Below are positions 1,289 to 14,218 of a stretch of DNA of 27,385 nt, piece after piece; positions within the stretch are counted from its first letter, which is position 1; every line of letters begins with the position of its first letter. The notes beneath the pieces were generated by a model. The model had not been told where the DNA came from. It was given only the letters and a program-made list of their open reading frames with translations, and did not search any database. This DNA is from an uncultured Myxococcales bacterium (GTDB taxonomy: Bacteria; Myxococcota_A; Bradymonadia; Bradymonadales; Bradymonadaceae). The stretch is from assembly GCA_913058025.1 (NCBI GenBank), contig CAJXPN010000001.1, positions 1-27,385 of the forward strand. The letters run 5' to 3'. Both the position numbers and the translations under genes were made by a program.

Positions 1289-4200
1289 TCAGAACCTCAC
1301 GGCCCAGCGTCGGCGCGCGAACACGCGCCAGCGGTCCGATCCCAGATCCTCATAGGTGAGCGCGTCGAAGTCGAAGTCGTCGATGCTCGCCGAGGTCACC
1401 CTCATGAAGAGGCGCTGGGCAGGGTAGGGGACGGGGCGCTCTGCGGCCGGGAGCCCCGAGAAGTCCGGGAACTCGGGCAGGCGCACCGACGTCTGGGTCC
1501 CCGGGACGATCGCGGTCCAGACGGGGAGCCCGAGCTCGTTCGTGAGCACCAGGAAGGTCACGTCGGGGTAGTACGGGCCGTCGGCCTGCCAGCGGATCTC
1601 GTTGTCCACGACGAACAGGTCGGGCAGCGGGCGCACCGGCTCGGGCACGTCGAGCAGCGGCCCGAGCTCGACCACCTGAGACATGTCCGAGATGCCCGTG
1701 ACGCTCGTCTGCGTGAGCGGCTCGTATTGTCCCGTGTAGGACCCCCCGATGAGCGTCACCGTGACGTCGGCGAGCAGCCCAGTGAGCGCGGGTTGTCCGG
1801 TGATCGAGAGCAGCGAGCTCAGCCCGGAGGCGCCCGTCGGTGAGGGGAAGACCCCCTCGAAGCCGAAGTCCCAGAACGCGCGCACTCTGTTGTTGTCGGG
1901 TCCCAGCGGGTTGTAGATGGGGTTGATGAGCTTGACGTCGAGCTGCTCCTCGAGCGGTATGTCGCACTCGAGGTCGACCTCGTACTCGCCGCGGTCGCTG
2001 ATGAACAGGAAGCGCTCGACGGCCATGTATTGAGGCGCGAAGGAGTCGGTGTCCTCATCGTACACGCCACACATCGCCACGACCGCGAGGTCGCCGATCC
2101 TCGTGTTGATCTCGTAGTCGCCTTCACCCAGGACGACGGACCCGGGCCCCGGATCGGGCGTCCCACCGAACACGCTCGACTGCGTCGTGCGCACGATGAC
2201 CATGTCGTAGGTGCGCGCGTCCGAGGGGTCGGACAGCTTGCCAGGCGTCGTGACCACGCCGCGCACGATGCCGAACGGTGGAGGGTCGCCGCCGCCGCCG
2301 CCGCCACCCGGGCTGGGGGGCGGTGGCTCGGTCGGGTTCAGGAAGATCGTGATGTCCTCGGCGTCGATCGCCTGGATGAGCGCCGACGAGAAGCCCGCTG
2401 CCGTCGCCGTGACCGTCTGCGCGCCCAGCACGTCCGCGCCGGAGAGCGTGATCTGGCCGTTGACGTCCGTGAACCCCTGGTACTGGGTGTCGGGGCGCGT
2501 CGAGAGCATCACGAACGCGCCCGGGAGCGCGGCGCCGCCTGCGTCGAACACCGAGACGTTCACCGCGCCGTCGATCGGCGCGCCCGAGGCGCCGCCGAAC
2601 CTCGAAGCGGGGTTGTAGTACTCGAAGTCGTACGGCGCGAGCGCGCGCCGCGCGCCCTCGACGACCTCCACGCCAGCCTCTCCCGCCGCGCCAGCGGGGG
2701 TCCTGAACGTGAGGTTGTTGCGGTCGAGCCTGCGCAGGCTCGAGCCTCGCCTTCCGCCCACGAGCGCCTCGAGCGCGCCGTAGAAGCCTCGGCCCCGGAT
2801 CGTCACGAACGTGCCCCCCGAGATCGCGCCACGCACGGGCGTGTACCCCCAGATCTCGAGCGGCTCGGTGTAGGTGTAGCCGTCGACGAGGAGGCCGCGC
2901 GCGCCGTCGGCGCGCACCTCGACGTCCACCTCGCCAGCTCCATGGGCAGGCGCGATCACGTCGATCTCGGTGTCCGACAGGACCGTGAACGCGGCGGGCA
3001 CGCTGCCGAAGAGGACCTCCTCGGCGCCAGTGAACCCCTCGCCCTGTAGCCGGATCGCCTCTCCCCCGGCGACGTCTCCCTCGCTCGGGCTGAGGCCGTC
3101 GATCCACACGGTCGCGACGTACTCGTAGCCGTCGTCGAGCCGGGCGAGCTCGGCCGCGCCGTCGAACAACGTAACGTCTGCCAACCCGAGCGCGCCCGCT
3201 GGCGTGCGCACGACGGCGTGGGTCGGCCCCGACTCGATGACCGTGGCGTCCGACCCCTCGAACGCGATCCTCGCGTTCGGAGCGTCGAGGCCGAAGCCGA
3301 CCACGCGCGCGGTCGCGCCTCCCTCATCGGGCCCCGAGCCCGGCGTCACGCCGAGGAGCTGGGGCGAATCGTCTGCGCGGTAGTAGAACGCCTCCGCTGC
3401 GAACGCGGCCTCACCCCCGGCCTCGATGAGCACGTCCGCCGCGCCCACGGCCCCCGCGGGCGTGCGCACCGTCACGGTGTCCGCAACGGGGTCCACCGAG
3501 ACGACCTCGGCCTGGGCTCCGCCGATGCGCACGGTCGCGCCGACGGTGACGCCTGGCGCCTCGATCACCACGGTCTCACCGCCCGCCGCGAGGCCGCTCG
3601 CGGGCGTGATCGCGCCGACAGTCAGCGGCGAGTAGTACGTCACCGCGTCCTCGGCCACCGCGCCACCGCGGCGCGTCGTGACGCGCACGTCGACCACGCC
3701 CTCGGCGCGCGGCGGCGCGAGCGCGCGGGCGGTCTCACCGTCGATGAAGATCACGCGAAGCGCGCCCTCGCCGCCCACGCTCACGGCCATCTCGGGGGAG
3801 AATCCTTCGCCACGCAGTGACAGCTCGACGCCACCAGAGGTCGGCACGCGCGCGGGCGTCACCGATGTCAGGCGCAGCCCGTTCGTGTACGTGAACCCAT
3901 CAGGCAGCGCGACCACGCGCCCGTCCGGGTGGATCGCCTTCACGGTCACGGGGCCAGAGCCCAGAGCAGGGGGGGTGTCGCCCACGAGCCCCGCGCCGCC
4001 AGGGACGACGTCCATGAGCGCGCTGCCGAGGAACACCCTGGTGCCCTCGACGAGGCCTTCTCCAGAGATCCTCACACGCGATCCGCCCTCGACGGGTCCC
4101 GTCGGGGGCACGATCGCCGTGAGCGTGAACGCGTCTGGATCGATGGGGCCGGTGTCTTCCTCGACGGGGTCCGCGTCGGGCGCGGCGTCGGCACCCGCGT

Positions 4201-4435
4201 CCTCGACCACGAGGTCCGCGTCGTCTCCGGAGTCGACGCCTGCGTCCTGGGGAGTTGGCCCTGTGTCCGGGGCGGCTGAGTCCACGCCTGGGTTTGCGTC
4301 GACGATCGAGACGTCGGGGCCTGCGTCCGTGCCCTCCTCGGTCGTGTCGTCACTGCACGCGGGAGCGAGCAGCGCGAGCGCGAGCGCCCACGTGGTCACG
4401 ACCGCTCGTCTGCTGCTCGTCTGGTCGTCGCGCAC
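1289..4435 (-). CDS. Large surface/outer-membrane lipoprotein with six IPT/TIG domains, a carboxypeptidase-regulatory-like beta-sandwich and an unknown C-terminal region (paralog A, 1048 aa)
   Basis: GGAGGAG RBS before GTG; lipobox LAPA|C (Cys27); acidic DAG/DTG-rich stalk. Six repeats start FTLTAIVPPTGPVEGG, LRLTSVTPARVPTSGG, LTVGAITPASGLAAGG, PQLLGVTPGSGPDEGG, VWIDGLSPSEGDVAGG and LEIWGYTPVRGAISGG, and most end in F/Y-x-Y (approx. 2610-4130). Confidence 0.88.
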   Translation of the reverse strand: MRDDQTSSRRAVVTTWALALALLAPACSDDTTEEGTDAGPDVSIVDANPGVDSAAPDTGPTPQDAGVDSGDDADLVVEDAGADAAPDADPVEEDTGPIDPDAFTLTAIVPPTGPVEGGSRVRISGEGLVEGTRVFLGSALMDVVPGGAGLVGDTPPALGSGPVTVKAIHPDGRVVALPDGFTYTNGLRLTSVTPARVPTSGGVELSLRGEGFSPEMAVSVGGEGALRVIFIDGETARALAPPRAEGVVDVRVTTRRGGAVAEDAVTYYSPLTVGAITPASGLAAGGETVVIEAPGVTVGATVRIGGAQAEVVSVDPVADTVTVRTPAGAVGAADVLIEAGGEAAFAAEAFYYRADDSPQLLGVTPGSGPDEGGATARVVGFGLDAPNARIAFEGSDATVIESGPTHAVVRTPAGALGLADVTLFDGAAELARLDDGYEYVATVWIDGLSPSEGDVAGGEAIRLQGEGFTGAEEVLFGSVPAAFTVLSDTEIDVIAPAHGAGEVDVEVRADGARGLLVDGYTYTEPLEIWGYTPVRGAISGGTFVTIRGRGFYGALEALVGGRRGSSLRRLDRNNLTFRTPAGAAGEAGVEVVEGARRALAPYDFEYYNPASRFGGASGAPIDGAVNVSVFDAGGAALPGAFVMLSTRPDTQYQGFTDVNGQITLSGADVLGAQTVTATAAGFSSALIQAIDAEDITIFLNPTEPPPPSPGGGGGGGDPPPFGIVRGVVTTPGKLSDPSDARTYDMVIVRTTQSSVFGGTPDPGPGSVVLGEGDYEINTRIGDLAVVAMCGVYDEDTDSFAPQYMAVERFLFISDRGEYEVDLECDIPLEEQLDVKLINPIYNPLGPDNNRVRAFWDFGFEGVFPSPTGASGLSSLLSITGQPALTGLLADVTVTLIGGSYTGQYEPLTQTSVTGISDMSQVVELGPLLDVPEPVRPLPDLFVVDNEIRWQADGPYYPDVTFLVLTNELGLPVWTAIVPGTQTSVRLPEFPDFSGLPAAERPVPYPAQRLFMRVTSASIDDFDFDALTYEDLGSDRWRVFARRRWAVRF
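2475..2519. repeat. 45-bp exact direct repeat shared by the two IPT/TIG paralogs (copy 1)
   Basis: ccctggtactgggtgtcggggcgcgtcgagagcatcacgaacgcg occurs at 2475-2519 and 5691-5735. Confidence 0.92.
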
Positions 4436-4492
4436 GCGCTCCTCCGATGTCTCTACGAGATGCCGCTCAGGTCCGAGGGCTTGGATGCGTCA

Positions 4493-7400
4493 TCACAGCT
4501 GGATGAATCGCACCGCCAGCGAGTACGCGTCCCAGTTCGCCGGGTCGAGGTCGCCGTACGTGAAGTTGTTCACGTCCACGCCGGGCTTCTCGATCGCGTA
4601 GATGACCACGGGGGTCGAGATGCCCTTGAAGGGGGCAGGGCGGTCCTCCTCGGGCAACGCCGAGAAGTCCGGGAACTGCGGGATGCGCACGCTGCGGGCC
4701 GAGCCCGGCAGGAAGACGTCCCAGTAGGGCACGGGGCCGGCGATCGTGAGCTCGAGGATCTGCACCTGGAACATGTCCGGCTGGCGCGACGAGTTGTAGT
4801 TGAAGCTCACCAGGCCGTTCGTGGGCGAGGCGCCCTGGGCCGGGGCGGTGAACTCGGCCACACCGAGCAGACCAGGCAGCTCCACGAGCCCCGACGTGTC
4901 CGTCACGCCGCGCTTGAATCCGATCGAGAGCGGGTAGCCCGCCCCCTGCGCCGTGAGCGTCTGCGCGCCACCCTCGACGTCGTACTGGACGTCGGCGAGG
5001 TCGCCCGCCAGCGAGGGCAGGCTAGTCACCGTCACGAGGTTCGCGCCGCCGGGGCCCTTCGTGTTCCCGAGCTCACCGAAGACGCCGTCGAAGCCCATGT
5101 CCATCCACGGCTTGACGTAGGTCTCGTTCGGACCGACCACCGCGTCGAACGGCGTGTCGTTCATCTTCACGACCATCGTCTGGTCGAGCGGGATGTCGAG
5201 CTCCAGGTCGATCTGGTAGGTCTGCCCCTCCGAGGCCGTCAGGTAACGCTTCACGCCCATGGCGATGGGGGTGAACGTCCCGTCACGGTTGTCGTAGATC
5301 CCGCCGAGCACCACGATGGCGAGGTCGCCCAGGCGCGACGTGATCGCGTAGTCACCGTCGGCCAGGAGCACCGCGTCGGGGCCAGGGGCGGGGTTCTCGT
5401 TCCCCTGGCTCGCCTGGGTCGTGTAGACGTAGGCGATCTTGAACTGAGAGGCGCCCGGCTCGGCGAGCTTATTGAGGCCCTTGAGCGAGCCCTCGAAGCG
5501 CGCCGGCGCAGGAGGCGTGGGCGGCTCACCCTGAGACGGCGGGACCTCCGGCTGGAGGAACACCGTCACGTTCTCCGCGTCCACGCTCTGGACCGTCGAG
5601 GACGAGTGGCCCGCCGCGATCGCGGTGATCGTCTGCGCGCCGTAGACCTCGGGGCCCGACAGCGTGATCATCCCGTTGACGTCGGTGTAGCCCTGGTACT
5701 GGGTGTCGGGGCGCGTCGAGAGCATCACGAACGCGGTCTCGATGGGCGTGCCCGCGTACGAGTACACCGTCACGTTGACCGAGCCGCGGATCGCGCCGCC
5801 CCAGGAGCCACCGAAGCGCGCGCCCGGGTTGAAGTAGGAGAATTGCTCGGGCGAGGTCTTCGACTCGGCGCCGTTCGTGACGACCACGTCGACCGCTCCC
5901 GTCACGCCGGGGGGCGTGCGCACCGAGAGCGTCTGAGCGTCGAGCACGCGGACCTCCGGTGCCTGTGTGCCGCCGAACGTCACGTCCACCGCGCCCACGA
6001 ACCCGCGCCCGCGAAGCTCCACGTAGGTCCCGCCAGCGATCGAGCCGCGCACCGGGAACATCCCGTACACGTCGAGCTGCTCGGTGTAGGTGAACCCGTC
6101 ACGGAACGTCGCCTTGATGGGGCCACGCTCGACCACCACGTCCACCACGCCCGCCGAGCGAGAGGGCGCCGTCGCCGTGATCTCGGTCGCCGAGTCCACC
6201 GCGAACGCCGCCGGCACTCCGCCGAACAGCACGCGCGTGGCGCCCGTGTAACCCTCTCCCTCGATGAGCACCTGCGCGCCGCCTGCGGCGTCCGCCGTGT
6301 TCGGGGTGATGCGATCGATCCAGATGTCCGAGACGTACTCGAACCCGCCCGCGAGCGTCGAGCTGTCCGCGCCCGCGTTCACCACGACGTCCACGACGCC
6401 GATCGCGCCGGCCGGCGTGCGCACCACCGCGCTGCCCGTGTCCTGCGACACGATCGTCGCCAGCGCCCCGCCGAAGCGGACCTCCAAGCCCGCGGCGTCC
6501 AGCCCCGCGCCCGTCAGCGTCACGTCCACGCCGCCCGAGATCGGGCCGACCTGCGGTGAGACCGCCGCGACCGCGATCCCCGAGCCGTCGTCGTAATAGA
6601 ACGCGTCCGGCGCGATCGTCGCCTCACCGCCCACGAGCACCACGCGCACGTCCGCCAGCCCGGCCGAGCCCGCAGGCGTCGTCACCTCGATCTCGTCGCC
6701 GGCCGGAGACACGGAGGTCACCGTCGCAGGCACGTTGTCGAACTCCACCGCCGCGTCCTGCTCGAAGCCCGAGCCTCGCACGACCACCGCGTCGCCTCCC
6801 GCGGCCACGCCCACCGCGGGCGACAGAGACGTGATCTCGAGCGGGGCGTAGTACGTCACCGCGTCGGGCAACGTCATCGTCGCGCTGGCGTTCGTGACGC
6901 GCGCGTCCGCATCGCCGACCTGGCCCGCAGGCGCCAACACACGCATCAACGTCGGGCTGAGCAGCTCGTGGCGAAGCGCCGTCTGGCCGCCCAGGCTGAG
7001 GCGCGTCTGCGCGTCGAAGCCTGCGCCCTGAATCGTCAGCTCCACGCCTCCCTGCACGGGAATGTTCCTGGGGGTCACGCTCGTGAGGCCCAGCGAGGCC
7101 GAATACGAGAAGCCTCCCGTGAGCGTGTCGTCCCCGTACTCCGGGTCCAACAGCTTCACGTCCACCGAGCCCGGCGCCACGCCCGCGGGCGTGGCGCCCA
7201 CCAGCGTGCCCTCGATCAACGCCACTTGCGCAGGCGCGCCGCCGAAGTACACCACCGTCGCGTCGGTGAACCCGACCCCGTCGATCACGAACGGAGTCCC
7301 CCCATCCACGGGGCCTCGCGGCGGCACGAGGGTGTCCACGCGCAGCTCCGTGACCTCGAGGTCCGGCTCGTCCCCCGTGTCGGGCTCTTCGACGCTTGCG

Positions 7401-7654
7401 TCGGCGTCCTCGCCACCTCCGGTGTCCGAGACGCCGCCGTCATCCCCCGGTCCAGTGTCCTCCTCGGGCGTCCCGAGGTCGGGCGCCGCGTCCGCGCCGC
7501 CCGCGTCGGTCGTGGCGTCCGCGAACGCCTGCTCGTCAGGCTGCTGGGGCTGGCGATCCGGGTCCCCCGTGCACGCCCACGCGAGCGTCGCGGACAGACA
7601 CATCGTGATCGTCGCGCGTGACGCGCTCTTAATCCTCACACGGGGTGATGGCAT
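4493..7654 (-). CDS. Large lipoprotein with six IPT/TIG domains (paralog B, about 1053 aa)
   Basis: The best start is ATG 7654 (AGGAG RBS upstream); the ORF track extends to 7696. Lipobox LAWA|C, acidic stalk, six (V/I)xPxxGxxxGG IPT repeats (approx. 5825-7350). Colinear with paralog A, e.g. the shared AFVMLSTRPDTQYQG. Confidence 0.88.
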   Translation of the reverse strand: MPSPRVRIKSASRATITMCLSATLAWACTGDPDRQPQQPDEQAFADATTDAGGADAAPDLGTPEEDTGPGDDGGVSDTGGGEDADASVEEPDTGDEPDLEVTELRVDTLVPPRGPVDGGTPFVIDGVGFTDATVVYFGGAPAQVALIEGTLVGATPAGVAPGSVDVKLLDPEYGDDTLTGGFSYSASLGLTSVTPRNIPVQGGVELTIQGAGFDAQTRLSLGGQTALRHELLSPTLMRVLAPAGQVGDADARVTNASATMTLPDAVTYYAPLEITSLSPAVGVAAGGDAVVVRGSGFEQDAAVEFDNVPATVTSVSPAGDEIEVTTPAGSAGLADVRVVLVGGEATIAPDAFYYDDGSGIAVAAVSPQVGPISGGVDVTLTGAGLDAAGLEVRFGGALATIVSQDTGSAVVRTPAGAIGVVDVVVNAGADSSTLAGGFEYVSDIWIDRITPNTADAAGGAQVLIEGEGYTGATRVLFGGVPAAFAVDSATEITATAPSRSAGVVDVVVERGPIKATFRDGFTYTEQLDVYGMFPVRGSIAGGTYVELRGRGFVGAVDVTFGGTQAPEVRVLDAQTLSVRTPPGVTGAVDVVVTNGAESKTSPEQFSYFNPGARFGGSWGGAIRGSVNVTVYSYAGTPIETAFVMLSTRPDTQYQGYTDVNGMITLSGPEVYGAQTITAIAAGHSSSTVQSVDAENVTVFLQPEVPPSQGEPPTPPAPARFEGSLKGLNKLAEPGASQFKIAYVYTTQASQGNENPAPGPDAVLLADGDYAITSRLGDLAIVVLGGIYDNRDGTFTPIAMGVKRYLTASEGQTYQIDLELDIPLDQTMVVKMNDTPFDAVVGPNETYVKPWMDMGFDGVFGELGNTKGPGGANLVTVTSLPSLAGDLADVQYDVEGGAQTLTAQGAGYPLSIGFKRGVTDTSGLVELPGLLGVAEFTAPAQGASPTNGLVSFNYNSSRQPDMFQVQILELTIAGPVPYWDVFLPGSARSVRIPQFPDFSALPEEDRPAPFKGISTPVVIYAIEKPGVDVNNFTYGDLDPANWDAYSLAVRFIQL
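5691..5735. repeat. 45-bp exact direct repeat shared by the two IPT/TIG paralogs (copy 2)
   Basis: Identical to 2475-2519; encodes AFVMLSTRPDTQYQG on the minus strand. Confidence 0.92.
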
Positions 7655-7736
7655 CGCTCTCTTCTCCTGTATCTCTTTCATGGCGCGCCGCGGCACTGTG
7701 GGCCACGCCGTCGCGTCGAGTCTCTCTTACGCGGTG

Positions 7737-7884: not shown

Positions 7885-9255
7885 TCAGTCCGTCGTGTTC
7901 GACGTCAGCGTCGTCATGCCTGTCTCCTCGTCGTACTTGACGTGGATCGTGAGGTGCTCCTTGCCCTTCGAGAAGTGCATCCAACGCGCGTTGCTGGGGA
8001 GGCCCTCGCCCTGGCTCTTGTACACCTGGCCGATGGTGTCGTGGATCTCGCTGAGCTTCCAACCCTTCCTGCTCAGGTCGTCGACGTAGTGCTCGATGAC
8101 CTGAACCGGTGAGCGCTTCACGCGCAGCACGTCCGAGGCGTAGTTGCTCTCGCGGCCGTTGCCCTTGAATGAGAGTGCGCGCTGGCACCCGTCGCACTTC
8201 TCGAACGCGCTGGTGCGCGCCGCCGAGTCCGGCAGGTCCTGAGAGCTGGCGAGCGAGAGGTCGAAGTCCTCGTCGCTCCACATCGCCGTGACCGCGCTCG
8301 AGCCGCTCTCCTTGTCGTAGAACGCCTCGATCTGGCGGACCGCGCGGATCCTGGACTCGAACTGCTCCGTGGACTCCTTGGCGAACTCCTGGAACAGCGT
8401 GTTGACCTGGGGGCAGCCGAGCAGCGACTTGTCCGCCTCGAAGATCGCCTTCATCGCGTCCATCTTGCGCGCCGTGTTCGCGTACGCGTCCTGCTCCTCG
8501 TTGCAGACCCCGCCCGAGCAGGTCGTCTTCTCCTGCTTGTCGAGCGCCATCCCGAGCTTCGTCGCGGCCTGCTGCATCTCGCCGTCGGCCTCGACCGCGC
8601 GCTCGACCTCCGTGTCGAAGTAGGTCTCGTCTCCGCCACAAGAGACGTAGGCAGTGCGGAACTTCTGGCCGTACTTCTCGAGCTTGGCCGTGCGCTGCGC
8701 CATCGTCTCCTTGAGCGCACCATCACCCTGCTCGGACGGGTGCGCGTACTCCGCGCCTCCCATCGACATGTAGTTGTTCGTGATCATCTGCGGCAGGATC
8801 TCTCCGTTCGCGGCGGCCTCGTACATCTCCTGGAGGTCCTCGGAGGGCTTCTCCTGGGAGTTCTCGTCGGCGAGCTCGTGCGCGAGCGCAGGGACGAGGT
8901 GTTGGCGGCTGTTGACGCCCTGCACGACGAACGCTTCCTGGTAGTCCTGGAGAAGATCCTCGGGGGTCTTGCCCATGACCTCTCGGGTCGAGAAGTAGAC
9001 CGTGTTTCCGTTGAAGTCGTAGACGCGCGGAGGCTCGTGACCCATCTTCTCCAGGGCCGCGGTGAACTTCTGCGTCGACGACCGGTCGGTCAGCTGAGTC
9101 GTCACGATGTCTGCGTGGCCCTCGCTCACCAGCGTGATTCCGTCGTCTTGCGACGACTCCTGGGGCGGGTTCAGCGTCAGAATCGCTCCCCCGGCGCCCG
9201 CGATCACGAGCATCGTCAAGCCGACCCTCGCTGCTCCTGTCATGAGTTCTCTCAT
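7885..9255 (-). CDS. Hypothetical exported/membrane-anchored protein, last gene of the Tad pseudopilin operon (about 456 aa)
   Basis: Long ORF with native codon usage; AGGAG RBS before ATG 9255 (alternative ATG 9276 overlaps the upstream stop); one N-terminal hydrophobic segment (VGLTMLVIAGAGGAILTL); 6 Cys; no recognisable catalytic motif. Confidence 0.8.
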   Translation of the reverse strand: MRELMTGAARVGLTMLVIAGAGGAILTLNPPQESSQDDGITLVSEGHADIVTTQLTDRSSTQKFTAALEKMGHEPPRVYDFNGNTVYFSTREVMGKTPEDLLQDYQEAFVVQGVNSRQHLVPALAHELADENSQEKPSEDLQEMYEAAANGEILPQMITNNYMSMGGAEYAHPSEQGDGALKETMAQRTAKLEKYGQKFRTAYVSCGGDETYFDTEVERAVEADGEMQQAATKLGMALDKQEKTTCSGGVCNEEQDAYANTARKMDAMKAIFEADKSLLGCPQVNTLFQEFAKESTEQFESRIRAVRQIEAFYDKESGSSAVTAMWSDEDFDLSLASSQDLPDSAARTSAFEKCDGCQRALSFKGNGRESNYASDVLRVKRSPVQVIEHYVDDLSRKGWKLSEIHDTIGQVYKSQGEGLPSNARWMHFSKGKEHLTIHVKYDEETGMTTLTSNTTD

Positions 9256-9269
9256 AGTCTGCTCCTGGG

Positions 9270-10067
9270 TCAGCATTTCCACGTCGCTTTCTTGACACCC
9301 AGGACATTGCCCAGGCAGGCGGACTCTTTCTGCGCCGGGATTCGCGAGAAGCCGACCGTCACCAACTCGTTGACGATGCTGCCTCCCACTCCAGCGGGCG
9401 AGACCATCACGTCGTAACCGTTCTCGTAGCTGTAGTTGAACCTGCCGATGCTGCCGCTTCGGGACGCGCTGCCCGCCGCGGTGCCGTAGCGAATGCCCGC
9501 ACCCTGCGCGTGGCGCGAGCCACCGATCGAGTAGGGAACCGACAGCGCGAACACCACGATTCGTCCGCTCGGGAACGGCAACGGATCAAAGATCTTCGAG
9601 TCCGACGTCATCTTCTTGGCGAAGTCCGCGCCCTCTTTGGGCACCGCGGGCGGGTTGCCCTTGGCGGCGCTCTTCCACCAACTCGCCGTACGCTCAGCCT
9701 GCTTCAGGTGGCCCTGGAACAGCCCGATCGATGAGAGCATCTGCGGGAGATCTCCTCCCGGGCTCGAGTGGCTCGAGATCTCCCCGAGCTCGTTCACTGC
9801 CGCCATGATCGGCATCGAGTGATCGAAACCTGGAAACATATCGTTCTTGGTGTTGTGCACCGGGATCGCTTCATTCCACGTCGCACGCACCGCGGCGAGC
9901 TTCGTACGCACGCTCTCCTTCTCCATCCTCGTCAGGCTCCCCACGCCCGCGAAGATGATGATGAACACCGGCAGCGTAATCACGAACTCCGTCAGAGACG
10001 TGCCGCGCTGATCACGATCGAACCCACGCAGTAACGAGAGCATTTTCTTCTTCATTTTCGTCCTCAT
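9270..10067 (-). CDS. TadE/TadG-like type IVc pseudopilin (minor pilin)
   Basis: Prepilin motif FDRDQRG|TSLTEFVITLPVFIIIFAGV with Glu at +5 and a hydrophobic alpha1; C-terminal Cys pair (ESAC...TWKC). The start could be 10067 or 10055. Confidence 0.85.
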   Translation of the reverse strand: MRTKMKKKMLSLLRGFDRDQRGTSLTEFVITLPVFIIIFAGVGSLTRMEKESVRTKLAAVRATWNEAIPVHNTKNDMFPGFDHSMPIMAAVNELGEISSHSSPGGDLPQMLSSIGLFQGHLKQAERTASWWKSAAKGNPPAVPKEGADFAKKMTSDSKIFDPLPFPSGRIVVFALSVPYSIGGSRHAQGAGIRYGTAAGSASRSGSIGRFNYSYENGYDVMVSPAGVGGSIVNELVTVGFSRIPAQKESACLGNVLGVKKATWKC

Positions 10068-10083
10068 CCTCGCCCTCGCGTGA

Positions 10084-11502
10084 TCACTTGTGGAGGCCAT
10101 CGTACAGGTACTTGCTGTCGCTGTTCCCGTGCTTGTTCTCGCTGTCCATCGCCTTGAACGCGTTGTTCGCGTGCATGTAGAGGTCCATGATGAAGTCCAT
10201 GCCCATCGCGTTGAAGTTCAGGCCCATCGGCCCCGACATGAACAGCATGTTGCTGCCGTTCTCGCCCGAGCCCCTGTTCGCCTTGAACATGTCCTCGAAC
10301 TTCACCGGGATCTTCTCGTTCGGGAGCACCACGGGGCGCAGCTTCCCTATCCAACCCGGGTGGAACATCCACATGTCGTGGTCGCCGTCCATGAGCGGGA
10401 GCGTCCAGGGCTTGTTGTTCTCCGGGAAGATGAACTCGCCTCGCGCCATCGCCCATGTCCCGCCCGAGGACTTGTACCCGAAGTAGGCTCCAGAGCGCCG
10501 ATCCACGGTCTGCTTCTTCATGTAGTTGTAGTTGTCGTTGAGCTTGTTCGCCATGTCCGGGTTGTAGCGGTACGTGAACATCATGTTCGACTTACGCATC
10601 AGGTCCCGGCCATCGTCGCCATCGGCGTCGTTGTACCAGGGCTTCATCTGCCTGGGCCCCAGGGCCCACATGAAGAGGCAGCCCATGTACGAGTAGGCGA
10701 TGCTCGCGACCTCGCGCGGGCCCTTCCTGGCCCACAGCGGCTTCGAGCTGCTCAGGCGCTTGTGCTCCTCGAAGTTCATCATCCACTCGAGCAGCGTGAT
10801 CGGCGTCGAGGGGTTGCTCCCGATCAGCGGGATGGGGTCCAGACAGACCTCCATCTTCCCGCCTTCCTTGAGCGGGAGCTCCGACTTGAACGAGGTCGTG
10901 TTCGGGTGCGGGTACGTTCCCACCATGTCCGAGCCGTTGCGCAGCGACCGCTGGAGCCCCTCGCCCATGGCCCAGAAACCCGAGTACGTCTTCATCGACT
11001 TCTGGTAGCTGTCCAGGTCCTTCAGGTTCTTGATGATCTTCGAACTCCCGAACATCCCGATGACGTACCTGATGTACTTGATGCCCGCGGTGATGGGCAC
11101 CAGCGACGCCCAGTTGCCCGAGCAGTTCAGGCACGCCGTCCAGCAGCCGCAGAACCAACCACAGCAGCAACGCGAGCACTGACCCGCCAGCCACCCCATG
11201 TACATGGGGTACTGGAACGCATACATGTTGTGGATGCCCGTCACCGTGCGCTTGCCGATGTTCGAGAACGCGATCGTGTTCATCGAACGCGCTCGCACCG
11301 ACACCTGACTGTACGCCCCTGTGTCGGCGGCCATCTGCGCGTCTATCTTGTCGCGCGCGGCCTCCCCCGAGTCGTAGATCAGCAGACCTATCATGAACAG
11401 AATCAGGATCGAGGCCATGCACAGCATCGCCACGGCACCTCCCTCATCCCTGTCGAAGCGACCGAGCGCGCCGAGCAATCTTTCCTGTAGTGACTGTATC
11501 AT
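10084..11502 (-). CDS. TadG-like (Tad domain) pilus-assembly/tip protein, 472 aa
   Basis: FDRDEGG|AVAMLCMASILILFMIGLLIYDSG...DAQMAADTGAYS...ARSMNTIAFSN is the typical Tad N-terminal pattern (G|hydrophobic helix, D-x-G, Q-x-A-A-D-x-A-A/G). Confidence 0.85.
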   Translation of the reverse strand: MIQSLQERLLGALGRFDRDEGGAVAMLCMASILILFMIGLLIYDSGEAARDKIDAQMAADTGAYSQVSVRARSMNTIAFSNIGKRTVTGIHNMYAFQYPMYMGWLAGQCSRCCCGWFCGCWTACLNCSGNWASLVPITAGIKYIRYVIGMFGSSKIIKNLKDLDSYQKSMKTYSGFWAMGEGLQRSLRNGSDMVGTYPHPNTTSFKSELPLKEGGKMEVCLDPIPLIGSNPSTPITLLEWMMNFEEHKRLSSSKPLWARKGPREVASIAYSYMGCLFMWALGPRQMKPWYNDADGDDGRDLMRKSNMMFTYRYNPDMANKLNDNYNYMKKQTVDRRSGAYFGYKSSGGTWAMARGEFIFPENNKPWTLPLMDGDHDMWMFHPGWIGKLRPVVLPNEKIPVKFEDMFKANRGSGENGSNMLFMSGPMGLNFNAMGMDFIMDLYMHANNAFKAMDSENKHGNSDSKYLYDGLHK

Positions 11503-11577
11503 CGATTCACCGACTTTTGTTTCGTACCTGTCTTTGTCACGTCGCTAACGCGCGACCCTTCCAACGCCTGCTCTTGC

Positions 11578-12609
11578 TCAGTCCATCGTGGGATACTTGG
11601 GCAGCGTGAAGTTGCGCCGCATGACATGGTAGTTGCCGTAGGCGCCCGTGCCGTTGCCCCCGTAGCAACCACGCGCGCGCTTCTCGCCGAACATGTAACC
11701 GAACCAGGGGAACAGGATCGGGAAGAGGTACTCGAACTCGACACCCACACGGCCTCCCGTGTTCACGACCTTGTACTGCTGCTTGTCGAAGCACATGTAG
11801 GCCGCGGTCATCTTGCGCGAGGCCCTCTTCCACGCCGAGCCGCCCTGGTCGAACGCCACGCTGAACGCGGAGTCCTTGACGATGTTCCTCGAGACGTTGA
11901 GGTCGAACGAGGCCCACTGCGCCTGGTTCCACCGCTGGCCCTCGGGCAGGACGCCGAACTTGTTGAACGCTCCGGCCATCACCGATCGCACGCGGCGGAA
12001 GTCGTCGTTCGAGCCGTCCGACTCGACGCGGCCGATGTGGAACGCGTTGGGGGCCGTCGGCGCCATGACTATGGCGGAGGCCGTCTTGGCCCGCTCGCGC
12101 ACCGTGACGTCCCACGTCGCGCCAGAGGCCGGCGGCGCTCTGTCCAGCTCGGTCTCGGGATGCCAGATCTGCGCCGTCCTGGCGCCCTGGTAGACCGCGA
12201 TGTCGGCGAGCAGCGCGCCGATGTTGAGCAGCGAGAGCTGCGCGATCCCGCTCGTGAGTGAGAGGAAGGGCACCAGGACGATGAGCGTCTCCACCATCAC
12301 CGTGCCACGCGCCTTTCGGATCACGCGCTTCGCGCTCGTCCCCTTGCGCGCCTTCCACGACCGGTAGGCGAGCATACATGTCGCGTACACCCCCACGCCG
12401 ATGCCCACCTGGAGCGCGATCTTGGTCCACGACATCTCGAGTACGCCCGAACTCATCGCGTCCACGACCAGTGCGATCGTGAACCGGTCGAGCATCGGCG
12501 CGCTCACGAGCGCCACCACGAGCAGCGCGCCCAGGACGTGGAATACACCCTCGGCAGCCCACCCGAGCGCCCTGGAAGTCGTCCCTCTCTTCACCCTATC
12601 GACGTTCAT
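11578..12609 (-). CDS. TadE-like pseudopilin with a long N-terminal membrane extension (about 343 aa)
   Basis: Internal motif RKARG|TVMVETLIVLVPFL...LADIAVYQGARTA matches TadE (E5; A-x2-G-A-R). ATG 12609 has a GAGGTG RBS overlapping the upstream stop. The ORF-track extension to 12837 overlaps the upstream gene and is rejected. Confidence 0.8.
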   Translation of the reverse strand: MNVDRVKRGTTSRALGWAAEGVFHVLGALLVVALVSAPMLDRFTIALVVDAMSSGVLEMSWTKIALQVGIGVGVYATCMLAYRSWKARKGTSAKRVIRKARGTVMVETLIVLVPFLSLTSGIAQLSLLNIGALLADIAVYQGARTAQIWHPETELDRAPPASGATWDVTVRERAKTASAIVMAPTAPNAFHIGRVESDGSNDDFRRVRSVMAGAFNKFGVLPEGQRWNQAQWASFDLNVSRNIVKDSAFSVAFDQGGSAWKRASRKMTAAYMCFDKQQYKVVNTGGRVGVEFEYLFPILFPWFGYMFGEKRARGCYGGNGTGAYGNYHVMRRNFTLPKYPTMD

Positions 12610-12614
12610 TTCGC

Positions 12615-14129
12615 TCACCTCGGTGCCTTGCGCGAGCCGCGCTGCTTCGTGCTCATTTTGTTGAACTCTTTCATGGCGTCGCCCACCCCGGCCATCTTTT
12701 CGTCGTAGTCGGGGTGCTCGGCCCGCAGCGCTTCCATGTTCGCCGCGTTCTCCTTGCTCCCCTCCATCTTGAGCTGCATCTCCTGCATGCCCTCGTAACT
12801 CTTCTCCATCCTGCCCTTGCCTCCGCCATCGCCCCACTGCTGGTACTGCAGCTGAGCCATCCGAGCGTTGACCGCAGACTGCATCTTCCTCAGGTCCGAC
12901 GCGTTGTAGTTCGTCACGCCCTTGCCGCGGTTGGTGACGATGTGCTTGGAGAAGGCCTCGAGGTCACCCTTCGACACGGCGTCGGAGATCGAGCTCTTCC
13001 CGATCTGGTTGCCGAGCCTGGCGCGCTCGTCCTGGTCCACGGCCTGGAGCTTGGCCAGGTAGACCTGCAACTCGAGCACGGCCGTGTCGAGCTGCGCCTG
13101 GCACATCAAGCCGTCCAGGTCCGCCACGGTCCCGAGGTCCTCGCCCAACCTCGCGCAGACCTTGGCCAGCGAAGGCGTCGAGGTCTTGACCTCCGGGGTC
13201 AGGCACTCCTCATGCTCGGTGAGCACGTACCTGAGCACCTCCAGCGTCTCCGACGTCGCGCTGTCGTCGACCACCAGGGCGCACACCCTCTCGAGCGTCC
13301 CCCGCTTGATCGCGTCCGCGCCGAGGTCGAGCTGCTGGATCTGCTCCTTGGTGACCGTCGTGCGCAGACCGAAGCTCGCCGCGAGCAGCTCATCCTCGAC
13401 CCCGAGGGCGTAGATCGAGTCCTCGCTGGGCTCGATCCTCGTCCACATGACGACGCCCTTGCCGAGCTCGTCCACGAGCTGCTCCACGCAGCACGCCCGC
13501 GTCCCCTCATGCCCCGCGCCGAGCGCGCAGCCGAGGAGCATCGCGCCCTTGACGTCTCGCTTCACCTCGAGCTGCTTGAGCGAGTCGGCCTGCGTGCAGA
13601 CCGCCTCGTCCGTGCTCATCATCATGACCTGGTGCCACTGGTTGGCGAGCTGGCGAACCAGCTCGTCCATCTGCTCGTACTCCGGCGCCGAGGCCATACA
13701 CGCCGTCGCCATCGCGGGGCTCGTGTTCATCAGGCTGAAGACCTCGTCGACCTCCACGTTTGTGCGCAGCATCTTCCCGCACGCTTCCAGGCGCACTCCC
13801 TCGTCCTCGTCGTCCAGCGCCTTCTTGAGCGCCGGCCCCTCGGCCACCGCCCTGAGCATCTCGGTGCGCACCTGAGGCACGCTCCACACGCCCGGCACCA
13901 TCCCGATCACCACCGAGAGCATCACGACGCCCATCATCAGGCCCATGCCTCGCTCGTCGCTGCGCAGCGTCGGGCTCACCGCGAACGCCACTCCGATCAA
14001 CGCCGGACAGATCGCCACGAGCCCCACGATGAGGGGCTGCGTCGGCGGCATCCAGGCCTCGACCACGTACAGCATGAAGCCGATAGTGGCTGCGATTCCT
14101 GTGAATATGACGGCTGCGATTGCCTGCAT
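12615..14129 (-). CDS. Hypothetical membrane protein: three N-terminal TM helices plus a Cys-rich alpha-helical (HEAT-like) domain; first gene of the Tad pseudopilin operon (about 504 aa)
   Basis: Three hydrophobic segments in the first ~85 aa; LKKALDDEDEGVRLEAC resembles a HEAT/PBS-lyase repeat; 10 Cys in the soluble part; stop codon 5 nt before the tadE-like start. Confidence 0.75.
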   Translation of the reverse strand: MQAIAAVIFTGIAATIGFMLYVVEAWMPPTQPLIVGLVAICPALIGVAFAVSPTLRSDERGMGLMMGVVMLSVVIGMVPGVWSVPQVRTEMLRAVAEGPALKKALDDEDEGVRLEACGKMLRTNVEVDEVFSLMNTSPAMATACMASAPEYEQMDELVRQLANQWHQVMMMSTDEAVCTQADSLKQLEVKRDVKGAMLLGCALGAGHEGTRACCVEQLVDELGKGVVMWTRIEPSEDSIYALGVEDELLAASFGLRTTVTKEQIQQLDLGADAIKRGTLERVCALVVDDSATSETLEVLRYVLTEHEECLTPEVKTSTPSLAKVCARLGEDLGTVADLDGLMCQAQLDTAVLELQVYLAKLQAVDQDERARLGNQIGKSSISDAVSKGDLEAFSKHIVTNRGKGVTNYNASDLRKMQSAVNARMAQLQYQQWGDGGGKGRMEKSYEGMQEMQLKMEGSKENAANMEALRAEHPDYDEKMAGVGDAMKEFNKMSTKQRGSRKAPR

Positions 14130-14218
14130 GATTTCCACGCGAGAGTTTGCGTTCGGTGCTCGCAGAGGACTGCGGTACACACCCGATGACGGGAGAGTTG
14201 GGAGGGGAAGTCCCTACT

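Follow-up and report, generated by a model that had tools for sequence, protein, structure and literature searches.

The Kil Tad pilus of Myxococcus xanthus carries interchangeable tips built from KilL (TadE-like), KilM (TadF-like) and KilN (TadG-like) (Herrou et al., Nat Commun 2025, PMC12075869). KilN, a large pilin, combines two long helices with a beta scaffold and lies at the extremity of a spearhead-shaped trimer; it is described as having "numerous predicted intramolecular disulfide bonds", with the disulfides being mentioned in general terms only (PMC12075869). The same study used Foldseek and predicted analogous tips in Bradymonas sediminis, and its own profiles found tip1-4 only in Myxococcota and almost exclusively in Myxococcales. 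Whether the filaments penetrate the prey or wrap around it was left undecided by its authors (PMC12075869). Here, we analysed a stretch of 27,385 nucleotides from an uncultured bacterium of the Bradymonadaceae (contig CAJXPN010000001.1, positions 1 to 27,385), the whole of which is called the window below. As in the Kil tips, we find a trio of TadE-, TadG- and TadE-like genes, at 11578-12609, 10084-11502 and 9270-10100, respectively, all on the minus strand. The middle gene encodes a TadG/KilN-like minor pilin of 472 amino acids, in which eight cysteines are found within 19 residues (11122-11178, minus strand). With a probability of roughly two in three, we interpret this cysteine run as a cap at the apex of a hairpin formed by the long helix alpha1 and the return helices, in a KilN/TadG-like minor pilin of a Bradymonadales Tad (Kil-like) tip cassette, with the apex being held together by a nested disulfide staple. 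That the family exists and is predicted to be rich in disulfides is already in the literature, and the advance is a refinement rather than a new system; the eight-cysteine motif, its conservation and its position are not described in PMC12075869, and full-text literature searches returned no account of the motif itself.

The pilin gene (10084-11502, minus strand) was assigned as a putative backbone subunit of the tip complex from its open reading frame (ORF), its PF13400 match, its homologues, Foldseek matches and orthology. The product matches PF13400 (Tad) at residues 22-64, with 24.2 bits against the Pfam cut-off of 22.3, and we found 37 homologues in a collection clustered at 90% and 195 in a library clustered at 50%. 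The frame is taken to be real because the PF13400 match exceeds its cut-off and because these 37 homologues exist. Upon translation, 11122-11178 gives CSRCCCGWFCGCWTACLNC, which corresponds to residues 109-127 of the protein, preceded by YPMYMGWLAGQ and followed by SG and then NWASLVPITAGIKYIRYVIGMFG, with KIIKNLKDLDSYQKSMK lying farther downstream. The original prediction, made from the sequence alone, had reported eight cysteines in 19 residues with these flanks inside a TadG-like pilin; every quoted residue is present in the translation, and both the above-threshold PF13400 match and the TadG-like fold matches described below agree with the assignment. The eight cysteines are C109, C112, C113, C114, C118, C120, C124 and C127, and together with C28 in the hydrophobic N-terminal part of the first helix (alpha1N), C220 and C275 they bring the total in the pilin to 11. 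At the protein's own cysteine frequency of 2.3%, the probability of finding at least eight cysteines in any 19 consecutive residues is ~2e-6.

We modelled the pilin of the window with AlphaFold2, using an alignment of 36 sequences (mean predicted local distance difference test (pLDDT) 79.8, predicted template modelling score (pTM) 0.77). Helices are predicted at residues 20-94, 97-112, 121-132, 135-151 and 155-188, with residues 113-120 forming a loop and a mixed domain following the last helix. In this model, C109 and C112 close the outgoing helix, C124 and C127 open the return helix, and C113, C114, C118 and C120 occupy the turn between the two, so that the cysteine run sits where it had been expected, between the long N-terminal helix and the helix that returns along it. 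The long helix alpha1 comprises residues 20-112, with a kink at 95-96 (11167-11445, minus strand; block pLDDT about 82-95), and its hydrophobic part, alpha1N (residues 23-44), has a mean Kyte-Doolittle score of 2.35. Ahead of it lies a leader peptide, residues 1-22 (11437-11502, minus strand), with a probable prepilin-peptidase site after G22 (..DEGG/AVAMLC..), which is placed there because the leader-less chain B of the B. sediminis tip model has a cysteine at position 6 that corresponds to C28 here. Within the turn, residues G115-W116-F117 (11152-11160, minus strand) make up an apex loop of a glycine and two hydrophobic or aromatic residues, as judged from the composition of 30 orthologues. 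The return helices at 121-132, 135-151 and 155-188 (10939-11142, minus strand) run antiparallel to alpha1. Beside the cap lies a conserved loop, SSSKPLWARKGP (residues 251-262; 10717-10752, minus strand), in which S251 and P262 are nearly invariant.

The hydrophobic segment that follows the cysteines, called amphipathic in the original prediction, turned out to be part of the return helices and not a membrane element. It corresponds to residues 130-152, and its mean Kyte-Doolittle score is only 0.82 against the 2.35 of alpha1N, which also rules out a second transmembrane segment after the cap; moreover, conservation within the hairpin is lowest in the return helix. When the model was searched with Foldseek against clusters of the AlphaFold database, 13 matches were obtained at E <0.01, with ten of them being named TadG-like N-terminal-domain proteins (best E 6e-12). 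Their template modelling (TM) scores are only 0.24-0.50, indicating that the fold is shared in part. No fold match to the pilin model was found in the PDB at E <1 by Foldseek; residues 95-135 had no match among PDB sequences up to E 10 by phmmer, and Pfam at E 10 returned only noise for residues 90-200 and 189-472.

Further evidence on the cap comes from the published tip model of Bradymonas sediminis (deposited model DN745_18665_18670_18675, supplement of PMC12075869), and the sulfur distances given here are those of this orthologue and not of the window protein. We sampled about a quarter of its chain B, including residues 81-114, 194-258 and 335-349, and hardly any of chains A and C. Chain B (DN745_18670) carries, in mature numbering, the motif C87-K-R-C90-C91-C92-G-F-W-C96-G-C98-W-G-A-C102-L-N-C105. 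A complete genome belonging to the same GTDB family has the matching gene (locus L049, 3659-5023), which contains the exact strings of the model; its product is 45% identical to the window pilin over the full length (E 3e-111). The alignment of the two is gap-free from residue 18 to about 150, and a window residue number equals the model number plus 22. In window numbering, the distances between cysteine gamma-sulfurs (SG-SG) are 1.9 Å for C109-C127, 2.0 Å for C112-C124 and 1.9 Å for C114-C118, which are the lengths of disulfide bonds. A second, separate disulfide is predicted in the distal domain between C220 (10843-10845) and C275 (10678-10680; the pair spans 10678-10845, minus strand), both of which are nearly invariant, since the SG atoms of their equivalents, C203 and C256 of the orthologue model, are about 2.1 Å apart. 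The cysteines had originally been read as a disulfide knot of up to four bonds or as a metal site. The disulfides fare better of the two, although three bonds rather than four are modelled, and a cystine knot is ruled out, with the modelled bonds being nested and not threaded.

The position of the cap along the tip was also read from chain B. Cys6, which marks the alpha1N end of this chain, lies 126 Å from the centroid of the eight cap sulfurs, and the N-terminus of chain A is found at that same end. The apex aromatics of the orthologue, F94 and W95, project 138-139 Å along the axis, beyond every other sampled residue. Residues 232-241 of the model, which correspond to the loop at 251-262 here, lie at 116-120 Å along the axis and 10-15 Å off it, adjoining the return-helix residues that follow the cap. 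The rest of residues 194-258 stays below about 100 Å, and the pilin-type sheet (residues 335-349) lies around mid-length. The cap is therefore placed, in this 45%-identical orthologue, about 126-139 Å from the alpha1N base, that is, distally, as had been proposed, and not at the membrane-proximal base of the pilin. This position agrees with the statement of the model's authors that the distal domain of KilN is the extremity (PMC12075869). The proposal that the cysteines cap the end of a hairpin is upheld for the apex position, but the hairpin end is not a free-standing finger, with the loop at 251-262 flanking it on one side.

Upon aligning the homologues, we observe that about 30 orthologues, at ~40-50% identity, retain the cysteine pattern C-x2-C-C-C-(G-x-x)-C-G-C-W-x2-C-x-N-C. 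Across 31 orthologues, the mean column entropy of the cap is 0.79 bits, similar to that of the C-terminal part of alpha1 (0.80 bits), compared with 2.08 bits in the first part of the return helix, 1.9-2.7 bits in the C-terminal part and 1.6-2.7 bits overall outside alpha1. The question of conservation versus hypervariability, which the original prediction had raised, is thus settled in favour of the former; a hypervariable apex is ruled out, with the cap being among the most conserved segments of the protein. Of the 60 residues at the apex pair in 30 orthologues, 56 are hydrophobic, with at least one aromatic occurring in 27 of the 30 loops (GWF, GFW, GWY and similar). C118 and C120 are separated by an invariant glycine, and the tryptophan after C120 (W121) is found in 29 of the 30. 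In a survey of the order, we found an orthologue (E <1e-100, single copy) in 11 of 47 other species genomes, and these 11 belong to one family. Regarding individual positions, pilin residue 132 (about 11107-11109) is A in the window (SGNWAS) and V in the database cluster representative P0001 (SGNWVS), which is reported as 100% identical.

The wider family reveals a graded series. Among 148 full-length members, the number of apex cysteines is 2 (66 members), 4 (20), 6 (10), 8 (33) or 10 (2), with odd counts in 15, and the cysteines beyond alpha1N are even-numbered in 145 of the 148. In a maximum-likelihood tree, the motif-bearing proteins form one clade of 35, with low support at its node (0.21); the enclosing clade, which adds two sister proteins with twin CxxC motifs, has a support of 0.98, and the next enclosing node 0.94. 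Delimiting the clade by a raw count of eight cysteines failed, since unrelated proteins have eight too, and the motif pattern was used instead. The successive sister groups carry a twin CxxC (e.g. R-C-x2-C-x7-C-x2-C), then 7-11 cysteines, then the outer pair only. The occurrence of the outer pair alone in the deeper sister groups suggests that the outer bond is the oldest and that the staple was reinforced stepwise. We also observe, in P0030, P0039, P0041 and P0063, that the apex reaches up to 10-11 cysteines in some cases (four-cysteine runs and C-C-x-C-x2-C-x-C), and that others in the same clade are back to 4 or 6.

These observations can be assembled into a possible sequence of events. As with any type IV pilin, the cysteine domain is exported. 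After export and leader cleavage, DsbA-like proteins together with VKOR would oxidise the eight thiols to nested disulfides. The outer bonds, C109-C127 and C112-C124, would form a twin CxxC staple that clamps the ends of both helices, and the inner cysteines C113, C114, C118 and C120 would tie down the turn, with C114-C118 being modelled and C113-C120 being the most economical candidate for a fourth bond. The outcome would be a small and rigid cap, resistant to force and to proteases, which prevents fraying of a hairpin of ~100 Å. At the point of the spearhead-shaped tip, such a cap would present the Gly-hydrophobic-hydrophobic loop together with W121, which is nearly invariant; more speculatively, it is with this point that the pilus could first make contact with the prey envelope.

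Several points weigh against a fully stapled cap at the extreme end of the tip. All of the structural statements rest on AlphaFold models, and confidence is lower in the turn, with a block pLDDT of 76 in the model of the window protein and atom pLDDT values of 46-75 in the published one. In the latter, C113 and C120 are unpaired and 10.5 Å apart, so that three of the four bonds are accounted for. The even parity of the cysteines fits three bonds and two free thiols as well, and the six-cysteine relative P0038 keeps the CCC triplet without the loop cysteines, which makes the inner pairing less certain. Finally, that the apex loop is the most distal point of the tip subunit is supported but not proven, because it is derived from only about a quarter of chain B.

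The pilin gene is the third of a tightly packed cassette on the minus strand, in the order 521-aa membrane protein, TadE-like, TadG-like, TadE-like and membrane-anchored 465-aa protein. The first gene (12615-14180) lies upstream in all eight-cysteine loci and the fifth is at 7885-9282; both are placed in the cassette by synteny, belong to no Pfam family, and gave only noise against Pfam at E 10. The upstream TadE-like pseudopilin (11578-12609), assigned from its translation and from synteny in more than 30 related loci, and the downstream one (9270-10100), assigned from PF07811 at residues 33-59 and synteny, are candidate partners of the KilL/M type; the PF07811 match of the latter is weak (17.4 bits against a cut-off of 22.9, E 0.005). 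Six cassette proteins had no match in NCBIfam. At every close homologue fetched (loci L005-L011), the same five genes are found in the same order. More distant paralogues have a four-gene version, consisting of TadE-like, TadG-like and TadE-like genes and a fourth gene that is N-terminally related. The 465-aa protein has full-length matches in loci L005-L011, and the paralogous cassettes match only its N-terminal ~176 residues, with its C-terminal two thirds being confined to the eight-cysteine cassettes. The TadE/TadG/TadE-like trio itself is kept in more than 30 loci from Bradymonadales, and the taxa represented are Persicimonas, Microvenator, Bradymonadaceae, Lujinxingia and unclassified metagenome-assembled genomes of Myxococcota.

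What the cap would do is a separate matter from how it is held together. A role of the apex at membranes or prey is speculative, and the sole hint of it is the hydrophobic character of the apex pair noted above. By analogy with spike tips or the fusion loops of viruses, the G-W-F loop and W121, carried on their disulfide scaffold, might insert into the prey outer membrane or wedge against it, which we consider rather unlikely; if true, a Kil-type Tad pilus would use the apex to anchor in its prey or to breach it. Alternatively, the cap might dock another protein rather than prey, such as the 465-aa or the 521-aa cassette protein or an effector borne on the tip. This possibility, to which we also give a low probability, is compatible with the disulfides and rivals the reading of the cap at the level of function only. 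It would account for the invariance of the cap, whereas surfaces that recognise prey would be expected to vary, as do the "variable domains" noted at the tips (PMC12075869). Furthermore, wherever the eight-cysteine pilin occurs, the two extra genes are present in full length, and minor pilins are known to dock cargo, for example in the TcpB-TcpF pair (cited in PMC12075869). However, both the 465-aa and the 521-aa protein are anchored in the membrane by their N-termini and lack a pilin-type cleavage motif, which makes it less certain that they leave the cell envelope.

A different arrangement of the thiols could also be imagined, in which the scaffold has three disulfides and C113 and C120 stay reduced or reactive, either forming an intermolecular bond to a cassette partner or cargo or serving as a redox-sensitive or covalent-capture site. 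Exactly these two cysteines are the unpaired ones in the published model, but the turn is its least confident region, where a misplacement of ~3 Å is plausible, and exported bacterial proteins seldom have free thiols. P0038, with its CCC triplet and no loop partners, would fit this arrangement, as would the fact that the 465-aa protein's C-terminal domain is specific to the eight-cysteine cassettes; on the other hand, the partner proteins that were inspected have even cysteine counts, with six in the 465-aa protein, and the increase of apex cysteines by twos across the family fits intramolecular pairing. Taken together, we regard reactive thiols at the apex as improbable.

Of the two chemistries first put forward, the sequence and the models favour disulfides over metal because of the bond-length S-S distances, the even parity, the two-cysteine relatives and the lack of similarity to metal-binding families. 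A Zn(Cys)4 site formed by two CxxC motifs, or a thiolate cluster of all eight cysteines, would shape the tip in place of disulfides, and we judge this to be very improbable. In its favour, the CxxC...CxxC spacing is a classic signature of a Cys4 site, the cysteine density of the cap is metallothionein-like and metals cannot be placed by AlphaFold; the PAAR spike tips of type VI secretion are stabilised by zinc. Thiolates bound to one metal, however, would be expected at ~3.5-4 Å from each other, in contrast to the modelled 1.9-2.0 Å, and the sister lineages with the outer two cysteines only have too few for a metal site. The parity of the exported cysteines is even, including the isolated pairs elsewhere in the pilin, the motif has no conserved His or Asp, and residues 95-135 and 90-200 match no metal-binding family in PDB sequences or Pfam, respectively. 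Additionally, the protein is exported into an oxidising compartment, in an organism whose genome encodes VKOR and ten DsbA-like Thioredoxin_4 domains. DsbB was not found in the search of this genome, and VKOR is a functional equivalent of DsbB. Among the DsbA-like proteins, we observe frames of ~750 aa in which three Thioredoxin_4 domains stand in tandem, together with a 543-aa frame that has two (contig C249, 2837-4627; C341, 1313-3130; C105, 5746-6861), an arrangement that is unusual for periplasmic thiol oxidases, in an organism with cysteine-rich exported pilins.

Chance, low-complexity sequence or a wrong frame, which the 60-74% GC content of the DNA and the long spurious ORFs that overlap the pilin gene, both antisense to it and in other frames, might suggest, is refuted by the Pfam match, the 37 homologues, the pTM of 0.77, the retention of every cysteine in about 30 orthologues and the probability of ~2e-6, and its likelihood is negligible.

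Regarding the remainder of the locus and the genome, the upstream TadE-like gene (11578-12609) has a prepilin leader of ~102 residues with two hydrophobic segments before G/TVMVE, which is far longer than usual pilin leaders. Alignments with the orthologues of its product begin only at about residue 75-100 of the longest ORF, and for this reason a start at 12609 (MNVDR), directly after the stop of the preceding gene, is likely for this TadE-like prepilin. Large IPT/TIG-repeat proteins, encoded at 1289-7696 (minus strand), adjoin the cassette, and paralogous cassettes in Lujinxingia and further loci of Bradymonadales (L013, L020, L022, L023 and L026) have such proteins beside them as well, at 35-47% identity; they may be a conserved neighbour of the cassette rather than a chance one. 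On contig C5 of the source genome (loci L002-L004), we find two KilN-like paralogues (about 6024-6683 and 11368-11739), in frames of 585-590 aa ~5 kb apart, each of which has a TadE-like gene before it, and this layout suggests tandem tip cassettes. The source genome is 87% complete and is assembled in 1273 contigs. In a search for two components of the Tad system, RcpC/CpaB was found above the cut-off on another contig and Flp-like pilins below the cut-off. The RcpC/CpaB match and the weak Flp-like matches would fit a Tad assembly machinery that is encoded away from the cassette.

Predatory Myxococcota kill on contact by means of Kil-type Tad pili. In this context, the present analysis singles out a small, invariant and readily mutated element at the far end of one type of Bradymonadales tip. 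The rule of even-numbered exported cysteines and an apex staple that grows by twos can guide the modelling and the expression of the family, and an aromatic apex clamped by disulfides makes the contributions of tip rigidity and of hydrophobicity to killing testable. If the apex does insert into the prey outer membrane or wedge against it, the rise of apex cysteines from 2 to 4 to 8-10 would record selection for a harder point.

We compared the cap with other small cross-linked elements. In class II viral fusion loops, a glycine and aromatics are held by nearby disulfides. The likeness of the pilin cap to these loops and to PAAR caps is a functional analogy, in that each is a small, rigid, cross-linked or metal-stabilised apex that leads the way; they differ in that neither is homologous to the pilin cap, for which membrane contact or insertion is speculative. 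Hepcidin is a beta-hairpin peptide hormone with a four-disulfide ladder, in which eight cysteines occupy about 17-19 residues and include adjacent cysteines and a C-G-C. The pilin cap has eight cysteines in a similar span, likewise with adjacent cysteines and C-G-C, but its arms are helical and its connectivity is partly known. Comparable in geometry are the CHCH domains (CX9C), the small Tim proteins (CX3C) and the plant alpha-hairpinins (CX3C), in which antiparallel helices each carry a CXnC motif and are joined by two nested disulfides. The predicted pairs C109-C127 and C112-C124 of the pilin have the same outer-to-outer and inner-to-inner arrangement. In contrast to those hairpins, the pilin has CX2C motifs and four more cysteines in the turn, and the element is part of an exported protein of 472 aa; with no sequence relationship being found in Pfam or the PDB (residues 90-200 and 95-135), it would follow the same principle without being a member of those families.

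Among pilins, canonical TadG proteins (PF13400) of Flp loci resemble the window protein in the hydrophobic N-terminal helix domain, in having TadE/TadF-like neighbours and at the level of the fold. They differ in their C-terminal domains (TM 0.24-0.50) and in that the cassette described here probably stands apart from the assembly genes; a cysteine-rich apex in TadG proteins is not reported in the literature that our search returned. The KilN tips are the nearest comparison. The cassette of the window differs from them in having two extra conserved genes, that is, five genes compared with three in M. xanthus, and its relation to KilN1-4 of M. xanthus is drawn by way of fold and orthologue. Bradymonadales tips are, in addition, known from sequence and models. 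In architecture, the two are alike: the window pilin is predicted to combine two long helices with a beta scaffold and has no homologue in the PDB, and the modelled tip subunit of B. sediminis, DN745_18670, carries the same eight-cysteine motif.

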